Shown in pieces: positions 3,303 to 26,832 of a stretch of DNA of 64,000 nucleotides; position 1 is the stretch's first letter, and every line of letters starts with the position of its first letter. The position numbers were made by a program, and so were the translations under genes. Location of the stretch: positions 69,346 through 133,345 of the forward strand of contig JBHGBE010000001.1 in NCBI GenBank assembly GCA_041946855.1. Reading direction: 5' to 3'. The DNA comes from Phycisphaerae bacterium. Its GTDB lineage: Bacteria; Planctomycetota; Phycisphaerae; SM23-33. The notes below the pieces were generated by a model. It did not search any database. It saw only the letters and a program-made list of their open reading frames with translations, and was not told the DNA's origin.

Positions 3303-4013
3303 CTATGTCCGCCCAACGTGAAGGGCACGGCGTAGGATCCGGACCGCCTCGTCCTCGGTGACGTCCCGCCAGTTACGGTAGGCATCGGCCACGGCGAAAC
3401 AGTCTGCCGAGCGTATGTTGGCGCACCAGATCAAATCGACGAGGCCGGCCAGACGCGCCAAGGCGTCTAGGTGGGCAGTCGGAACAGCCACGGACAGGGC
3501 CGCCGGGCTAAGCCTCTTCACGGCCGTCGCGGCTACCATCACGGTGAAGCCCGATGCCAGCCCATCATCCACCAGCACGGCCTCGCGGCCCGCAAGGTCC
3601 GGCCAAGGACGTTCGCCGCGGAAGAGCCGAACGCGCCGGCGGACCTTGGCAAGCGTTGCCTCGATGCCCTGGCGGACTTCATCTTCCGACAGGCCCAGCG
3701 CGGCGACCAGGGAGTCGTTGAGCCGCACGCTGCCGTCGAACGCGACAGCACCGTAACCGACCTCACTGTTGCCCGGCGGGGTGATCTTGCTGACAGGCGC
3801 AACATCCAGCGGCGCGCCCAGCGCCATCGCCATCGCGGCGGTCACAGGCACTCCTCCGGCCGGCACCGCCAGGATGATCCGCTCGCGCTCCCCCGGGGCG
3901 GCCGTCAGCATCCGCGCGAGCACTTCGCCCGCCTCCGCACGGTCCTTGAAGATGTGAGTCTTCCCCCGCATCGCGGGCAAGTCGGTGACGTTGCCAGGAA
4001 TATCGCCTCTCAT
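3303..4013 (-). CDS. Phosphoribosyltransferase family protein
   Basis: FKDRAEAGEVLA, LAVPAGGVPV, PRPP loop VLVDDGLASGFT, AVPTA; start chosen at 4013 is uncertain. Confidence 0.85.
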   Translation of the reverse strand: MRGDIPGNVTDLPAMRGKTHIFKDRAEAGEVLARMLTAAPGERERIILAVPAGGVPVTAAMAMALGAPLDVAPVSKITPPGNSEVGYGAVAFDGSVRLNDSLVAALGLSEDEVRQGIEATLAKVRRRVRLFRGERPWPDLAGREAVLVDDGLASGFTVMVAATAVKRLSPAALSVAVPTAHLDALARLAGLVDLIWCANIRSADCFAVADAYRNWRDVTEDEAVRILRRALHVGRT

Positions 4014-4134
4014 GCGGCCCTCGCTCAATTCTACAAGTGGGCCGCCCGTGAAGTCGGGACGCCGACTGGCCGATGAAACGGGTATGACGCAAGCTTACGT
4101 CGCCCGGTCTAGCGAGTTACACGTGCTGGCAGCC

Positions 4135-5940
4135 ATGTCCTCGCGCGCTCGCACGGCCGTGGGCGTATTGGCGCTGGCGGGACTGGCGGTCCTTGTATAC
4201 CTGCCAGTCTTTAACGCGGGCTTCATCTGGGACGACGGCGTCTACGTCAAGGACCTCGCCGCCCTCAAGAGCCCCGGCGGGCTGGGGCGGATTTGGACCG
4301 ACTTCGCCGCAACGCCTCAATACTACCCGGTCGTCTTCACCAGCTTCTGGATCGAGTATCGCCTGTGGGGGCTGAACCCGGCCGGCTATCACACGGTGAA
4401 CATACTGCTGCACGCCGCTTGCGCCGCGCTGCTGTGGATTCTCCTGCGGCGGCTGGGCGTGCGCGGAGCGTGGCTCATCGCGGCCGTGTTTGCCTGCCAT
4501 CCTCTGAACGTGGAATCGGTCGCCTGGATCACGGAGCGAAAGAACGTCTTGTCGATGCTGTTCGCGCTCCTCGCAGCGATGGCGTATTTGCGGAAAATAG
4601 GGACGCACCCCATTTTCTCACGGTCTTGGGCTGGGCGGGCCGGCGTGGTCATGGAGAAAATGGGGTGCGTCCCTATTTTCCTGTTCGCATTGGCCTTGCT
4701 GAGCAAGACGGCCGTTTGCGGGTTGCCTCTGGCGTTGCTTGCGATTGTGTGGTGGAAGCGCGGGCGGCTCGGGTGGCGCGACCTGGCGGCCGTGACGCCC
4801 ATGCTTCTGCTGGCGGCGTGCGGCGCGGTCCTCACGGCGTGGATTGAGTCGAGCTTCTACGGCGACGCCCGGCCGCCAGTCGGGGCGGCCCTTGGGCTGG
4901 CCGATCGCGTAATCGTCGCCGGACGTGCCCTGTGGTTCTACGTTGGCAAGGTGCTCTGCCCCGCCCCTCTGACGGCCGTATACACCAGGTGGGAAGTAAG
5001 CGCCGGAACGTGGTGGCAGTGGCTGTTCCCTCTGTCGGCGATGGCTACCGTCGCGGGCCTGGCGATTGCGCGGAGGCGCATCGGCCGAGGTCCGCTGGCG
5101 GCGGCCATGGTATTCATTGTCATGCTCGCTCCCGCGCTGGGCTTCTTTCAGATCGCCTATCACACGATCTACAGCTACGTGGCGGACCACTTCGCCTACT
5201 TCGCCGTGCCGGCGGCCGTCGCCCTGGCCGTCGAAGCAGGCGCGAAGCTGCTCGACCGCGCCGGTCCGCGTTCCAGGCCCATCGGCATCGTGGCGTCGAC
5301 GGCCGTCCTCATCGCCCTGTCCGCGCTGGCCTGGCGGCACGCGAACGTCTTCAAGGACAACCTGACGCTCTGGCAGGATGCGGCCGCTAAGAACCCCACG
5401 TGCATGATCGCCCACGACCAGCTCGGAATGAGGTGGGTGCAGGCCGGCCAGATGAGCAAGGCCGTCGAGGAGTTCAGCAAGGTGGTCGAGCTGGCCCCGC
5501 GTTTCGCCGAGGGATACGCCAATCGCGGCGGGGTGTACCTCCAGTGCGGCCGGTTCCAGCAGGCCCTGGCCGACTTCGATGCGGCCGTCGCGCTCGACGG
5601 GCAGTTCGCCTCGGCGTGGTGCAGCCGGGGCAGCGCCAACTGCGGGCTCGGCCGTCACGAACAGGCCGACGCGGACTTCACAAAGGCGATCGAGCTTGAC
5701 CCGACAATGGCGGCCGCGTGGAGCAACCGGGCGATCTGCCGGTTCCATCAGCGGCGGTACGCCGAAGCGATGGCGGATGTGCGGAAGTTCCAGCAGCTAG
5801 GCGGCCAGGCGCCGCCCGAGTTCATCCAGGCCCTCGACGGCGCCATTCGGAGCCGCGTCAATCCTCCGGCGTCGGAAAAGCCGGGATGTCCTGCATCGGC
5901 GGAGGCTCCTGCGGCGCCGCGACAAGCGGCTGGGTCGTGA
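4135..5940 (+). CDS. TMTC-like GT-C membrane glycosyltransferase with C-terminal TPR repeats
   Basis: FIWDD, NPAGYHTVNILLH, HPLNVESVAWITERKNVLS, multiple TM helices, TPR repeats; start at 4135 inferred. Confidence 0.8.
   Translation: MSSRARTAVGVLALAGLAVLVYLPVFNAGFIWDDGVYVKDLAALKSPGGLGRIWTDFAATPQYYPVVFTSFWIEYRLWGLNPAGYHTVNILLHAACAALLWILLRRLGVRGAWLIAAVFACHPLNVESVAWITERKNVLSMLFALLAAMAYLRKIGTHPIFSRSWAGRAGVVMEKMGCVPIFLFALALLSKTAVCGLPLALLAIVWWKRGRLGWRDLAAVTPMLLLAACGAVLTAWIESSFYGDARPPVGAALGLADRVIVAGRALWFYVGKVLCPAPLTAVYTRWEVSAGTWWQWLFPLSAMATVAGLAIARRRIGRGPLAAAMVFIVMLAPALGFFQIAYHTIYSYVADHFAYFAVPAAVALAVEAGAKLLDRAGPRSRPIGIVASTAVLIALSALAWRHANVFKDNLTLWQDAAAKNPTCMIAHDQLGMRWVQAGQMSKAVEEFSKVVELAPRFAEGYANRGGVYLQCGRFQQALADFDAAVALDGQFASAWCSRGSANCGLGRHEQADADFTKAIELDPTMAAAWSNRAICRFHQRRYAEAMADVRKFQQLGGQAPPEFIQALDGAIRSRVNPPASEKPGCPASAEAPAAPRQAAGS
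4592..4681. repeat. In-frame palindromic element, 28-bp perfect arms, 90 bp total
   Basis: GGAAAATAGGGACGCACCCCATTTTCTC (4592-4619) and its exact reverse complement (4654-4681). Confidence 0.9.
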
Positions 5941-7171
5941 CGGCCGGCAGCGTGCTGGTCAGCTTGCCATTGGGCAGGCGGAAGTACTTGCTGATGATCT
6001 CCATCGCGGGCTTGTCCTTGGGGCAGTAGCCGCTGTCTTCGTCGGGGCCTGTCCGCTGGCCCTCGTAGTTGCGCCATTCCCACACGAGGTAGCCCGCGAC
6101 GGCCGGCTCCCCGGCCCAGGTCTTGAAGAACGCCTCGAAGCACCGCTTCTGGAGCTGGGGGTCCTTCTTGTCCATCGAGCGGTAGTAGTCCCACGGGAAC
6201 TGCGCGGCCGTCACCTGGTTGGGCCAGGCGGCCTCGGTGAACAAGATCGGCCTGCCGACCGTCGCCTGCCAGGCCAGCACGTCCTTCTTGATGCCCGCCC
6301 ACGTCTCCATCAGCACGTCGAGCGTCGGCTCCTTCGACCCGCACAGGTCGTGGTAGGTCGTCATGCCGACGATGTCTAGCTTGTCCCAGAACCTGGGCCC
6401 CCCCTGGTCGGCCTTGAAGTGGTCCCAGTTGGCCGAGTAGCTCAGGTAGCCGCTGAAGTGCTCGCGGACCTGCTTGATGAGCCTGTCCCACCTGTCGTCC
6501 TGCTGCTCCAGGCTGATAAGCTCGCTGCCGACCATGAAGATCTCGACCTTGGCCTCCTGGGCGATGTCGGCGCAGTGGAGGATGTAGTCGCCGTAGCTCT
6601 TCCACCAGTCATCCCAGGTGTTGCGGTCCTTGGTGGGGTCGATCTTGCCGCGCCACTCGCCCTCGCGGGGGCTGTCCAGCAGGACGATGGGCATGAGTAT
6701 CACGCGCATCCCCTGCTCGTGGGCGAGGCCGACAAGCTCCTTGAGCCGCTTCTTGGAGGGGGCCTTGCGGGCGTCGAAGAAGATGCTCGACGATCCGCAG
6801 TTCTGCTGGAACGCCGCCACGCTCATGCAGACCGTGTTGGCCCCGGTGGCGGCTATCTCCTTGATGTACTTGTCGTAGGGGTTGCTATCGTCCCCGTTGA
6901 ACTGAATGCTGATGCCGCGTATCTGGGCGAAGTCCGTCGGCTTGAACACGTTTGGGGGCGGATCGGCCGGCTTGCCCGGCTTGGTCGTCGTCGGCGGCAC
7001 GGCCCCGACGTGCCGGATGACTTGGAGGGCGACTATCCCCGCAAGCGCCAGCGCGATGGCCGTCAGCACGAGGGCCTTGTCGCGGCCCGACAGCAGGCTG
7101 TCACCGGCCCCGGTCGTCTGGGCCGCGGTTCGCTGGTTCGCATTATCCTTGGCGGTCGCTGAATGTCCCAT
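5858..7171 (-). CDS. Membrane-anchored glycoside hydrolase, GH113-like TIM barrel
   Basis: N-terminal TM segment; WRGKIDP, VGSEL, YSANWD, ILFTEAAWP motifs. Confidence 0.75.
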   Translation of the reverse strand: MGHSATAKDNANQRTAAQTTGAGDSLLSGRDKALVLTAIALALAGIVALQVIRHVGAVPPTTTKPGKPADPPPNVFKPTDFAQIRGISIQFNGDDSNPYDKYIKEIAATGANTVCMSVAAFQQNCGSSSIFFDARKAPSKKRLKELVGLAHEQGMRVILMPIVLLDSPREGEWRGKIDPTKDRNTWDDWWKSYGDYILHCADIAQEAKVEIFMVGSELISLEQQDDRWDRLIKQVREHFSGYLSYSANWDHFKADQGGPRFWDKLDIVGMTTYHDLCGSKEPTLDVLMETWAGIKKDVLAWQATVGRPILFTEAAWPNQVTAAQFPWDYYRSMDKKDPQLQKRCFEAFFKTWAGEPAVAGYLVWEWRNYEGQRTGPDEDSGYCPKDKPAMEIISKYFRLPNGKLTSTLPAVTTQPLVAAPQEPPPMQDIPAFPTPED

Positions 7172-9376: not shown

Positions 9377-9668
9377 TATGCCTACACTCTACGTCTTCAT
9401 CGGCCAACGAGCAAACAGGCCGTTAGGCACAACGCCGGGCGCGCCCGCCGGAATGGGTCGCGTGCCGCCAGGGCTGAAAGAAGGGAATGTGGAATTTCCG
9501 CTTCCGCCCGCCGCTAACCGCTTTAGGCGGCAAAGCTTACCCATCTTCACATTTTCCGATTCCGGCGACATTTCTTGCTAAAGTCGCCTCTTTGGGCCTT
9601 CGCGCCGGCGAGGGGCGCGATATCATGGAGCAATCAGAAGCGACGCGATTGCCCCAAGAGGTGATCAG

Positions 9669-23946: not shown

Positions 23947-24085
23947 GCCCTGTCCTTTCTGAATGGGACGCGTCTCATCTGTGCCGACACGCTCGGATCA
24001 TTCTAGTTAGGGCCGGCGGCGGCGCGGGAAATGTTGTTGCCGCTGTTGCGGGCTTCCATAGAATACGCTCACGCAAAGCGCGGCC

Positions 24086-25744
24086 ATGGCGATATTGACC
24101 GACTATCTTGAGCCGCGGACGCTCCAGCAGATGCAGGATGCGTTCGCGGCCGTGACGAACCTGCCCATTCGGTATTGCCGGCCCGACGGCAAGCCGCTGA
24201 CCAGGCCGTCGAGCGTCTCGGCCGGACTCTTCCGGAAGGACTCCGGCAGGTCCGAGGCCGCACACAAGACCGCCAAGCCCGCCGCGGCGATCAAGCCCGT
24301 CCGCTACGACGTGCCGATCGTGATGGCAGAGGAGGTCGTCGGCCGGATCATCCTGGAGACCGCCGACCCTCAAATGGACGTCGCCGGCCCGCGCGGCACG
24401 GAGGAAAAGTCCACGCGGATGCTCAGGCTCCTGGGCCTGATGGCCGGCATGATCTCCCGCCTGTGCGACCGCGAGAAGCAGCTCCGCGCCCGCGTGGACC
24501 AGTTGGCGGCCCTGTACAAGCTGACGGCCGAGTTCACCAGCCGCCGCGACCTCTATGGCGAAAAGAGCCTGCTGAACCTGGTCGCCGCCACGGTGGTAGA
24601 CGTGCTCAAGGCCAAGGCCTGCTCCATCCGCCTGCTGAGCGACGACCACAAGGAGCTGGTCATAAAGGCCGTCGCCAACCTATCGCCGGAGTACCTGAAC
24701 AAGGGGCCGATCCTCGTCTCGCGGAGCCTGATCGACAAAGAGGTGCTCGAGACGCTCAAGCCGGTGTACATCGCCGACGAGCGCAACGACCCGCGCGTGC
24801 TGTATCCGGCCGAGGCCAGGCGCGAGGGCATCGTCAGCGGCCTGGTCGCGCCGCTTATGTACAAGGGCCATCCAGAGGGCGTCATCCGCGTCTACATGGG
24901 GCGGAAATACAAGTTCGACTGGTTCGAGTCGTCGCTGCTGCTGGCAATTGCCGGCGAGGCGGCGGCCGCCATCGTCAACGCCCGCCTCTACGAGGAGGCG
25001 GTACACTCGGCCCACATGCGGCGGGCGCTCCAGACGGCCGCGGAAGTCCAGCGGAGGATGATCCCCTCGGCGCCGCCGTCCGTGCCGGGCTTCGAGATCG
25101 GCGCGCTCTACGTGCCCAGCTACGAGCTCGGCGGCGACTTCTACGACTTCATCCCCCTGCCGCCGGACAACGTGGGCATCGCGGTCTGCGACGTGGTGGG
25201 CAAGGGCGTGAGGGCGTCGCTGCTGATGGCCTCCATCCGCGCGTCGCTGCGGGCGCACGCGGCCAGCATCTACCAGATGTCGGAGGTGATGGCACGCGTC
25301 AACCGCGACCTGTGCGAGGACGTGCTGACCAGCGACTTCGCGACGCTCTTCTACGCCGTGCTCGACTACAAGACCCGGCGCTTCACCTACTGCAACGCGG
25401 GGCACCCGCAGCCGCTGCTGTTCCGGCCGGGACAGGCGCCGGTGAGCCTGTCGCTGGGCGGGCTCGTGATCGGCGTCGATTCGCAGGCGCGATATGACTG
25501 CGAGTCGTTCATCCTCGGCCCCGGCGACGTGGTCCTGGCGTACACGGACGGCATAGTCGAGGCGGCGAACTTCGCGGAGGAGCCGTTCGGCCGCAAGCGC
25601 CTTGAGACGGCCGCCACCGCCGCCATCCAGAAGGGCCAGTCCGCCGAGGCCCTCCTGCGGCACGTGCTCTGGGAGATGCGCCGCTTCGCCGGTCTGGGAA
25701 CTCGATTTGATGACTTGACTTTGCTGGCGATTCGGGTTCTATAG
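24086..25744 (+). CDS. PocR-like/GAF/SpoIIE (RsbU-type) PP2C phosphatase
   Basis: LQQMQDAFAAVT (PocR-like), GAF, GGDFYDF, DVVGKG, NAGHP, YTDG, DDLTLL. Confidence 0.88.
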   Translation: MAILTDYLEPRTLQQMQDAFAAVTNLPIRYCRPDGKPLTRPSSVSAGLFRKDSGRSEAAHKTAKPAAAIKPVRYDVPIVMAEEVVGRIILETADPQMDVAGPRGTEEKSTRMLRLLGLMAGMISRLCDREKQLRARVDQLAALYKLTAEFTSRRDLYGEKSLLNLVAATVVDVLKAKACSIRLLSDDHKELVIKAVANLSPEYLNKGPILVSRSLIDKEVLETLKPVYIADERNDPRVLYPAEARREGIVSGLVAPLMYKGHPEGVIRVYMGRKYKFDWFESSLLLAIAGEAAAAIVNARLYEEAVHSAHMRRALQTAAEVQRRMIPSAPPSVPGFEIGALYVPSYELGGDFYDFIPLPPDNVGIAVCDVVGKGVRASLLMASIRASLRAHAASIYQMSEVMARVNRDLCEDVLTSDFATLFYAVLDYKTRRFTYCNAGHPQPLLFRPGQAPVSLSLGGLVIGVDSQARYDCESFILGPGDVVLAYTDGIVEAANFAEEPFGRKRLETAATAAIQKGQSAEALLRHVLWEMRRFAGLGTRFDDLTLLAIRVL

Positions 25745-25767: not shown

Positions 25768-26832
25768 ATGAGCCACTTCTGTCTGCTCGCAAATCCGGAC
25801 AAGTACGTTGCGCAGGATTGGGACCTTCTGGCGGACGCCGCGGCGCGGGAACGATGGCTGGGGTTGTTCGAGACGCACTTCGGGGAGACGCTCAAGCACG
25901 CCGCCACGCAGTACGGCCGGAACGCCGGCAAGCAGATCGCCACCGCCCGCCAGCAGTTCGCGCAGGTCCTGGCGGGACTGCGGGCCAACCCCGCCAGCCT
26001 GCCGTCGGGCAAGCTCAACGTCCTGGAGCTCTGCCGCGCGCGGGAGAAGGTCCTTCGCGACAACCGGCTGAACGACCCGTTCGCGCACATCAAGACGCGA
26101 GAGAACGCGCTTGCCGCCAAGCTGTACCCGCAGGCGGTCCGCAAGCTGCACGCGATGAGAGGCGCGGACAAGTGGCTGCACCTGATCGAGTGCGTCTTCG
26201 CGGGCAACATATTCGACCTGGGCGCGACGGCCACGATGCACCTGGCGGAGAAGCCGACGGATTTCCTTGCCGCCGTTGAGAGCACCAAGCCGCGGCCGTG
26301 GGCCGTTGACGACTTCGACCGCCTGGCCAGGGACCTGCCCGACCGCCCGCCGACGAAGTGGTCCAAGGTCATCTTCTTCATCGACAACGCGGGCAGCGAC
26401 TTCATCCTCGGCGTCATGCCGCTGGCCCGCGAGCTGGCGATGTACGGCACGAAGGTGGTGCTGGCCGCCAACGAGCTTCCCAGCCTCAACGACATGACCG
26501 CGGATGAGACGGTCGCGGTGGTCGAGCGCCTGGCGGCGGCCGACCCGGACCTGGCGGCGCTCGTGCAGGCCGGCATGTTCGAGGTCGTGTCCACCGGCAA
26601 CGACACGCCGCTGATCGACCTGTCCAGCGTCTCCGACGAGCTGAACGCGGCCGCCGCGGACGCCGAACTGGTGGTTCTGGAGGGCATGGGCCGCGCCGTC
26701 GAGAGCAACCTGAACGCCGAGTTCAAGTGCGATACGCTGTGGCTGGCCCTGCTGAAGGACCCGGTCGTCGCGGCCAGGATCGGGGGAGAGATCTACGATT
26801 GTGTGTGCAAGTACCGGCCGGCACAGAGCTGA
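25768..26832 (+). CDS. DUF89/ARMT1-like damage-control phosphatase
   Basis: AGNIFDLG, FIDNAGSDFILG, AANELPSLND, LEGMGRAVESN. Confidence 0.85.
   Translation: MSHFCLLANPDKYVAQDWDLLADAAARERWLGLFETHFGETLKHAATQYGRNAGKQIATARQQFAQVLAGLRANPASLPSGKLNVLELCRAREKVLRDNRLNDPFAHIKTRENALAAKLYPQAVRKLHAMRGADKWLHLIECVFAGNIFDLGATATMHLAEKPTDFLAAVESTKPRPWAVDDFDRLARDLPDRPPTKWSKVIFFIDNAGSDFILGVMPLARELAMYGTKVVLAANELPSLNDMTADETVAVVERLAAADPDLAALVQAGMFEVVSTGNDTPLIDLSSVSDELNAAAADAELVVLEGMGRAVESNLNAEFKCDTLWLALLKDPVVAARIGGEIYDCVCKYRPAQS

Follow-up and report, generated by a model that had tools for sequence, protein, structure and literature searches.

A REP-type hairpin doublet in frame within a membrane protein gene of a Phycisphaerae bacterium

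The palindrome and its host gene

The window analyzed here is a stretch of 64,000 nucleotides from a 5.2-Mb MAG with 178 contigs and a G+C content of 65.6%. Early in the window lies a gene for a multi-pass membrane protein (Table 1). Its ORF is open from 3985 to 5940 on the plus strand, and the source annotation starts at the ATG at 4135. Within this ORF two 28-nt arms (4592-4619 and 4654-4681) are 100% complementary to each other and 34 nt apart, and the 90 bp that they delimit are exactly 30 codons of the frame, read as RKIGTHPIFS-RSWAGRAGVVM-EKMGCVPIF. A first-pass annotation had described the element in these terms, and the coordinates and the complementarity of the arms bear it out. No arm matches were obtained in 100 shuffles of the window sequence. 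Folding of the palindrome region as RNA gives a single long hairpin with a free energy of -69.3 kcal/mol and a z-score of -8.25 relative to shuffles. An independent second assembly, Logan contig SRR29307520_399170, is identical to the window over the 6863 nt compared, palindrome included, making an assembly chimera unlikely. The 3' end of the host gene overlaps a convergent GH113-family gene (5858..7171, minus strand) by 83 nt (5858-5940), and the same overlap recurs in the gene calls of the Logan contig.

Table 1. Host gene and component parts of the palindromic element, in window coordinates.
Feature	Position	Strand	Description
Host gene	4135..5940	+	601 aa; multi-pass membrane protein; IWDDG motif near the start, TPR repeats at the C terminus
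Whole 90-bp palindrome	4592..4681	.	Long-form REP doublet (REPIN-like); 30 in-frame codons, residues 153-182
Left 25-nt REP unit	4593..4617	+	GAAAATAGGGACGCACCCCATTTTC; loop ACGCA, T19C variant; read (R)KIGTHPIF
GC-rich spacer between units, 38 nt	4618..4655	.	Unique in the genome; encodes disordered loop SRSWAGRAGVVME
Right REP unit	4656..4680	-	Reverse complement of the left unit, also T19C; read EKMGCVPIF; predicted start of the next helix
Predicted junction peptides of the insert			For example AYLRKIGTHPIFSR and EKMGCVPIFLFALALLSK

The host ORF is continuous, with coding signal in one frame on either side of the palindrome. Every residue that is invariant in the family alignment is retained in the host, including those of the early IWDDG motif, so the host protein looks intact and is probably still functional. 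The label of a TMTC-like glycosyltransferase that it received in the first-pass annotation is an architectural guess, which the overall architecture and the IWDDG motif fit. The membrane domain returned only a below-threshold Pfam hit (PF07086, Jagunal, E = 0.015) and no sequence hit in the PDB, and a fold search against the PDB returned TPR proteins only. Some of the homologues carry a precomputed PF13231 assignment and the JGI name protein O-mannosyl-transferase.

Searches of 30 related genomes and 5.8 billion proteins yielded neither a close orthologue nor an empty site, the best matches having 52% and 45% identity. The closest homologues, at 45-52% identity, are too distant for the site before insertion to be rebuilt, and we infer insertion at the window gene. 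The spacing of conserved anchors around the element is informative in this respect. ERKNVLS and LLSKT are 47 aa apart in the host and 38-55 aa apart (mode 41) in 109 homologues, which makes the host loop approximately 6 aa longer than theirs. Removal of the 30 element codons would leave 17 aa between the anchors, far below the range of the homologues. This near-normal spacing argues that the element stands in for about 21-24 native codons and is not a pure addition of 30 codons, and it points to an insertion accompanied by a compensating deletion.

An AlphaFold model of the host (pLDDT 85.9, pTM 0.83) is confident outside the loop. In this model the first arm covers the last part of helix 132-154 and leads into a disordered loop, in which residues 158-170 have pLDDT below 50; the second arm falls within helices 169-176 and 179-190. 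The alignment places EKMGCVPIF where the homologues have RWxFYxLxLL, in agreement with the modeled helix. The earlier placement of the element between two transmembrane helices is thus roughly correct, but the element itself starts as helix 132-154 ends and reaches into helices 169-176 and 179-190. Likewise, the suggestion that it is tolerated in a loop fits the disordered segment, but does not cover the second arm, which is predicted to be helical, or the 21-24 or so native codons that appear to have been replaced.

A family of paired hairpins and the transposase gene that it flanks

A 25-nt unit, GAAAATAGGG-ACGCA-CCCTATTTTC, lies within each arm of the palindrome and forms a small hairpin of its own, in which a 10-bp stem closes a 5-nt loop. 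Genome-wide, this unit has 71 matches at up to 5 mismatches, and five scrambled versions of it have none. The matches resolve into 31 doublets (62 units), always in the order of a unit followed by its reverse complement. Most doublets (26 of 31) are short, with a total length of 64-65 nt and a spacer of 14-15 nt, while the remaining five are long forms of 88, 108, 110, 118, and 122 nt with spacers of 38-72 nt. The window copy is the 88-nt long form, extended to 90 nt by flanking complementary bases; the outermost 2-3 nt at either end of its spacer also prolong the palindrome. The repeated unit is therefore a self-complementary REP hairpin of 25 nt, of which the 90-bp palindrome in the window is an inverted doublet. 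Both window arms fit the unit at 24 of 25 positions. They share the rare T19C variant, which weakens each small hairpin and leaves the long hairpin perfect. The presence of 62 units in the genome, with none in scrambled controls or shuffles, upholds the initial view that so long a perfect inverted repeat is unlikely to come from protein selection, and the 31 doublets settle the question of whether the arm is multi-copy.

Across the 62 units, positions 3-18 never vary except for one substitution at position 5. The tag sequence ATAG lies inside the stem in 61 of the 62 units, the last having GTAG, and a conserved unpaired GTAG (or CGTC) tag at the hairpin end was not found in this unit family. 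Covariation of the terminal stem (GA..TC versus AT..AT) is partial, occurring in 28 of 62 units, and was not taken as evidence. The spacers are variable and unrelated in sequence among doublets. When the long-form spacers were compared by BLAST with the genome and with each other, just short chance matches were returned, with the exception of a 9-mer, GCTCTGGTC, common to the spacers at C79:70918-70977 and C134:13611-13678 at an offset of 17-25 from the left unit. This 9-mer may be a remnant of a common ancestry of the long forms.

No consistent target-site duplication accompanies the doublets: a direct repeat of at least 4 nt was found at the borders of 3 of 31, in line with the absence of an obvious duplication noted at first for the window copy. 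The degenerate half-copy that had been suspected at 23962-23980 of the window did not hold up. It matches the unit at 13 of 25 positions, as do 155 other places in the window equally well, and shares with it just AAT and GGGACGC, the latter alone occurring 12 times in the window; we regard the likeness as chance.

Arm mismatches are limited to 0-1 of 25 positions in all five long forms and in all four copies that lie within genes. The same is true of 7 of the 27 non-intragenic copies (Fisher p of about 0.01, a post hoc comparison), and the short intergenic copies mostly have 3-5 mismatches. The near-identical arms of the intragenic copies hint at one of two things: a young age and short life of these copies, or maintenance of the long hairpin.

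A scan with Pfam profiles detected seven Y1_Tnp hits in the genome, only one of which (C95:25388-25711) is bracketed by this repeat family, with doublets at 25004-25067 and 25787-25850. A Y1 transposase gene flanked by arm-type repeats, as had been anticipated when the palindrome was first noticed, is thus present. The corresponding ORF encodes 228 aa with the HUH motif SNHFHLV. It matches the NCBIfam model NF047646 REP_Tyr_transpos (REP-associated tyrosine transposase, RAYT) with E = 2e-21 and 76.4 bits, which is just below the cut-off of 80. Its sole PDB match is 4ER8, the E. coli TnpA-REP (E = 0.0045), with the HUH and Y..Y..NPV segments aligned. RAYTs are Y1/HUH enzymes of the IS200/IS605 superfamily.

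Among 24 other genera belonging to the same family, 3 carry the unit or variants of it with the loops ACGTA or ACGGA. In G014, a RAYT orthologue with 61% identity (C170:9557-10225) sits between units at 9527 and 10277, and in G011 the orthologue (about 59-61% identical) is 87 nt from a unit. The loop variants beside RAYT orthologues of 59-61% identity suggest that hairpin loop and transposase diverged together. Across the related genera, units with the loops ACGCA, ACGTA, and ACGGA are located at C170:8899-10297 in G014, at C27:25392-26161 in G011, and on several contigs in G008. A similar flanking hairpin was not found at ten loci of distant RAYT homologues (at most 54% identity) from other phyla. 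REP/REPIN-RAYT systems are characterized by just such a co-inheritance of a hairpin family and one Y1 transposase gene that it flanks (PMC3116915, PMC3337134).

The genome also contains a second hairpin family with a GTAG head (for example AAAGTAGTGCCTGTCCCTATTTTC / AGTAGTGACTGTCCCGACT), at C95:39437-40260, C13:71221 and 72464, C108:41411 and 41449, and C143:23009. A second Y1 gene, C95:39568-39903, is flanked by these GTAG-headed units. Since two Y1 genes are each flanked by their own hairpin family, the genome carries at least two REP-RAYT pairs.

Copies within and between genes

To place the doublets relative to genes, all six frames on both sides of every doublet were scored by a codon-usage model trained on 1031 long ORFs, and ORFs that stay open through each element were also checked. 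Four of the 31 doublets (~13%) fall within ORFs, their two flanks showing coding signal in one shared frame, and the other 27 are extragenic. About one copy in eight thus appears to be read as protein. The in-frame survivors are read in the only frames of the unit that are free of stops, which give KIGTHPIF/KIGCVPIF or ENRDAPYF/INRVRPYL.

The three intragenic copies outside the window are clean cases in which the element is absent from homologues, a comparison that had been proposed for the window gene. In the C145 host, a PHP/CBM9-like protein, AKAGRW and GWSVE are 38 aa apart, compared to 2-6 aa in 14 homologues; on this alignment the long form of 108 nt was inserted cleanly and in full. In the C129 host, a two-domain esterase, a segment of 25 aa corresponds to one of 6 aa in five homologues, and the C124 host, a DUF4129 membrane protein, has 22 extra aa in a variable linker. 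Relative to their homologues, the three sister copies are insertions in conserved proteins, so the repeat DNA is mobile.

The neighbors of the other doublets are unidirectional genes in 12 cases, convergent genes in 4, and divergent genes in 2, with a weak flank in 9. REPs have been reported mostly between unidirectional or convergent genes, as here (PMC3733652). Five doublets with same-frame flanks (C1 57321, C95 25004, C98, C136 49515, and C139) were considered as intragenic candidates and counted as intergenic, because stops within the element block the frame. Two doublets, C91:87668-87732 and C136:33608-33672, start with ATG-AAAATAGGG at the heads of ORFs, which read MKIGTHPI(F/Y)... followed by a signal-peptide-like stretch. 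At both loci the annotated start codon and N-terminus may come from the repeat and could be false.

Origin and affinities of the element

We consider it very probable that the palindrome is a REPIN-type inverted doublet of the 25-nt REP hairpin, non-autonomous and kept together with one dedicated RAYT. This reading builds on the repeat family, on the flanked RAYT and its conservation across genera, and on the in-frame insertion in three sister cases. By analogy with characterized systems, the RAYT would recognize the hairpin as folded single-stranded DNA, cleave it, and mobilize doublets with no duplication of the target, and linkage suggests that the C95 RAYT specifically is the enzyme that mobilizes them. 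Most doublets lie between genes. The few that landed in coding sequence would have survived because they contain no stop in the frame that is read, leave the frame downstream intact, and occupy loops that tolerate them. In the window gene, the doublet would occupy the loop after helix 132-154, with the first arm and spacer forming the disordered loop and the second arm coding for the beginning of the next helix, as in the model. The loss of about 21-24 native codons, at or after insertion, would then have left a loop of normal length. A counterpoint to the REPIN reading is that the spacers differ among copies, and recent activity is not evident from them.

Several other origins were weighed against this one. 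The doublets could be cis-acting sites of the host, serving in protein binding, as mRNA stabilizers, or as terminators, with the Y1 gene incidental or domesticated and the intragenic copies as by-products. The near-invariance of unit positions 3-18 in 62 units with unrelated spacers suggests selection on the hairpin, and the majority of copies lie between unidirectional or convergent genes, as is the case for REPs thought to be RNA elements (PMC3733652). We nevertheless judge this explanation improbable: three copies are insertions in conserved proteins relative to all homologues, which implies that the DNA moves, and the unit stays beside an orthologous RAYT in three genera. A host function and mobilization of the doublets by a RAYT are also mutually compatible. 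A MITE of the classical kind, with TIRs and a TSD, descended from a DDE insertion sequence and unrelated to the Y1 transposase, would likewise be short, non-coding, multi-copy, and bounded by inverted ends. Such an origin is very unlikely, as direct repeats of at least 4 nt border only 3 of 31 copies and no TSD is consistent, each 'TIR' is itself a self-complementary hairpin at variable spacing, and the sole gene flanked by the units encodes a Y1/HUH transposase. The first-pass annotation had described a MITE/REP-type element, in frame and resembling Rickettsia palindromic elements (RPE); the REP doublet, multi-copy and accompanied by a RAYT, is supported, and a MITE of the TIR/TSD type is not.

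Chimeric reads can yield perfect palindromes, and the genome is a 178-contig MAG, so that a fold-back or chimeric join has to be considered. That the palindrome is such an artefact is most unlikely in view of the identical contig from SRR29307520, the reading frame and family homology that run on at both sides, and the thirty other doublets that share its architecture. The normal loop length for the family would be expected if the palindrome had arisen in place, by chance or protein selection, with a coincidental likeness to other loci. Arms that match a 62-copy unit at 24 of 25 positions, against none in scrambled controls and shuffles, leave this origin next to no weight, and copy number effectively refutes it.

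A more speculative reading, which we hold to be doubtful, extends the REPIN-type origin. Here the doublet, having replaced about 21-24 native codons, would also have been recruited through its second arm to build the N-terminal portion of a membrane helix, and the perfect 31-bp mRNA stem would act as a post-transcriptional brake, for example through RNase III or ribosome pausing. The post hoc pattern in which 4 of 4 intragenic copies have 0-1 arm mismatches, as opposed to 7 of 27 intergenic ones, fits this reading. If it is true, REPIN insertion followed by a compensating deletion would offer selfish hairpin DNA a way to be exapted as structural sequence of a protein.

Among in-frame repeats, RPE offer an obvious comparison: they were reportedly described by Ogata et al. 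in 2000 as lying in frame in protein genes, being translated, and falling in surface or loop regions. RPE-1 is about 100-150 bp long and is found in the reduced, AT-rich genomes of intracellular bacteria, and no transposase gene is known to be associated with it. The element described here is likewise a palindromic repeat in frame in conserved genes, where it is presumably translated, judging from the intact ORFs. Unlike RPE, it is transposase-associated and belongs to another lineage; the window copy is shorter than RPE-1, and it is probably unrelated in sequence to RPE-1 to RPE-8 of Rickettsia. It works like an RPE, but with a different lineage and an associated transposase it is not classed as one. 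ERIC/IRU, Correia/NEMIS, and cyanobacterial MITEs, the subject of reviews by Delihas, are short, hairpin-forming mobile repeats that are occasionally in frame in ORFs. They are of the TIR/TSD type or have no known mobilizer, and none is known to have a flanked Y1 transposase. The element resembles them as a short mobile hairpin in ORFs and differs from them in the flanked Y1 transposase. Small intragenic bacterial repeats are covered in a review of MITEs (PMC10969869).

The closest affinities are with REP/REPIN-RAYT systems (Nunvar 2010; Bertels & Rainey 2011, PMC3116915; Ton-Hoang 2012; 4ER8). Like these, the family consists of a 25-nt imperfect palindrome in tens of copies, mainly as inverted doublets that can each form one long hairpin. 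A Y1/HUH gene is bracketed by the repeats, target duplication is lacking, and repeat and transposase are inherited together across genera with a co-varying loop sequence. In contrast to canonical REPs, the tag is an ATAG inside the stem and not an unpaired GTAG, and unlike the near-identical REPIN populations of Pseudomonas, the spacers here are highly diverged. The population is also small for a REP/REPIN-RAYT system (31 doublets), and 13% of its copies are intragenic. REPs are recognized in part by their extragenic location, which 27 of 31 doublets share and from which the window copy and three others depart, although published REP families also include intragenic members (PMC3733652).

In their survey, Di Nocera, De Gregorio, and Rocco (2013) found REPs with GTAG/CGTC tags in more than 80 species of 8 phyla, Planctomycetes and Verrucomicrobia among them, and described both RAYT genes flanked by REPs and REPs within genes (PMC3733652). 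More than half of the intragenic REPs were dimers or groups encoding 20-30 aa; they were most frequent in Opitutus terrae and in Rickettsia conorii, where they coincide with RPE-4 and RPE-6 (PMC3733652). The copies described here agree with the intragenic REPs of Opitutus terrae, Thauera, Rickettsia conorii, and others in being in-frame dimers of 20-30 aa, represented in the PVC superphylum in both studies, and in hitting unrelated proteins, which argues for tolerance and against function (PMC3733652). They differ in belonging to another hairpin family, in occurring in an uncultured planctomycete-like lineage, and in that one copy appears to have replaced native codons and to supply the start of a helix.

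REP dimers that lie within genes and encode 20-30 aa have thus been described before (PMC3733652); the window element is a clear new example and not a new kind of element, and the current understanding of REPs is unchanged. What it adds is a well-documented REP/RAYT pair for a poorly sampled, uncultured PVC lineage, with a defined hairpin and a flanked transposase in three genera. For annotation, odd inserts of 20-36 aa in the proteins of this clade (KIGTHPIF, ENRDAPYF, INRVRPYL) are repeat-derived and not domain features. The window gene itself provides a natural test case for the load of palindromic insertion that a multi-pass membrane protein tolerates.
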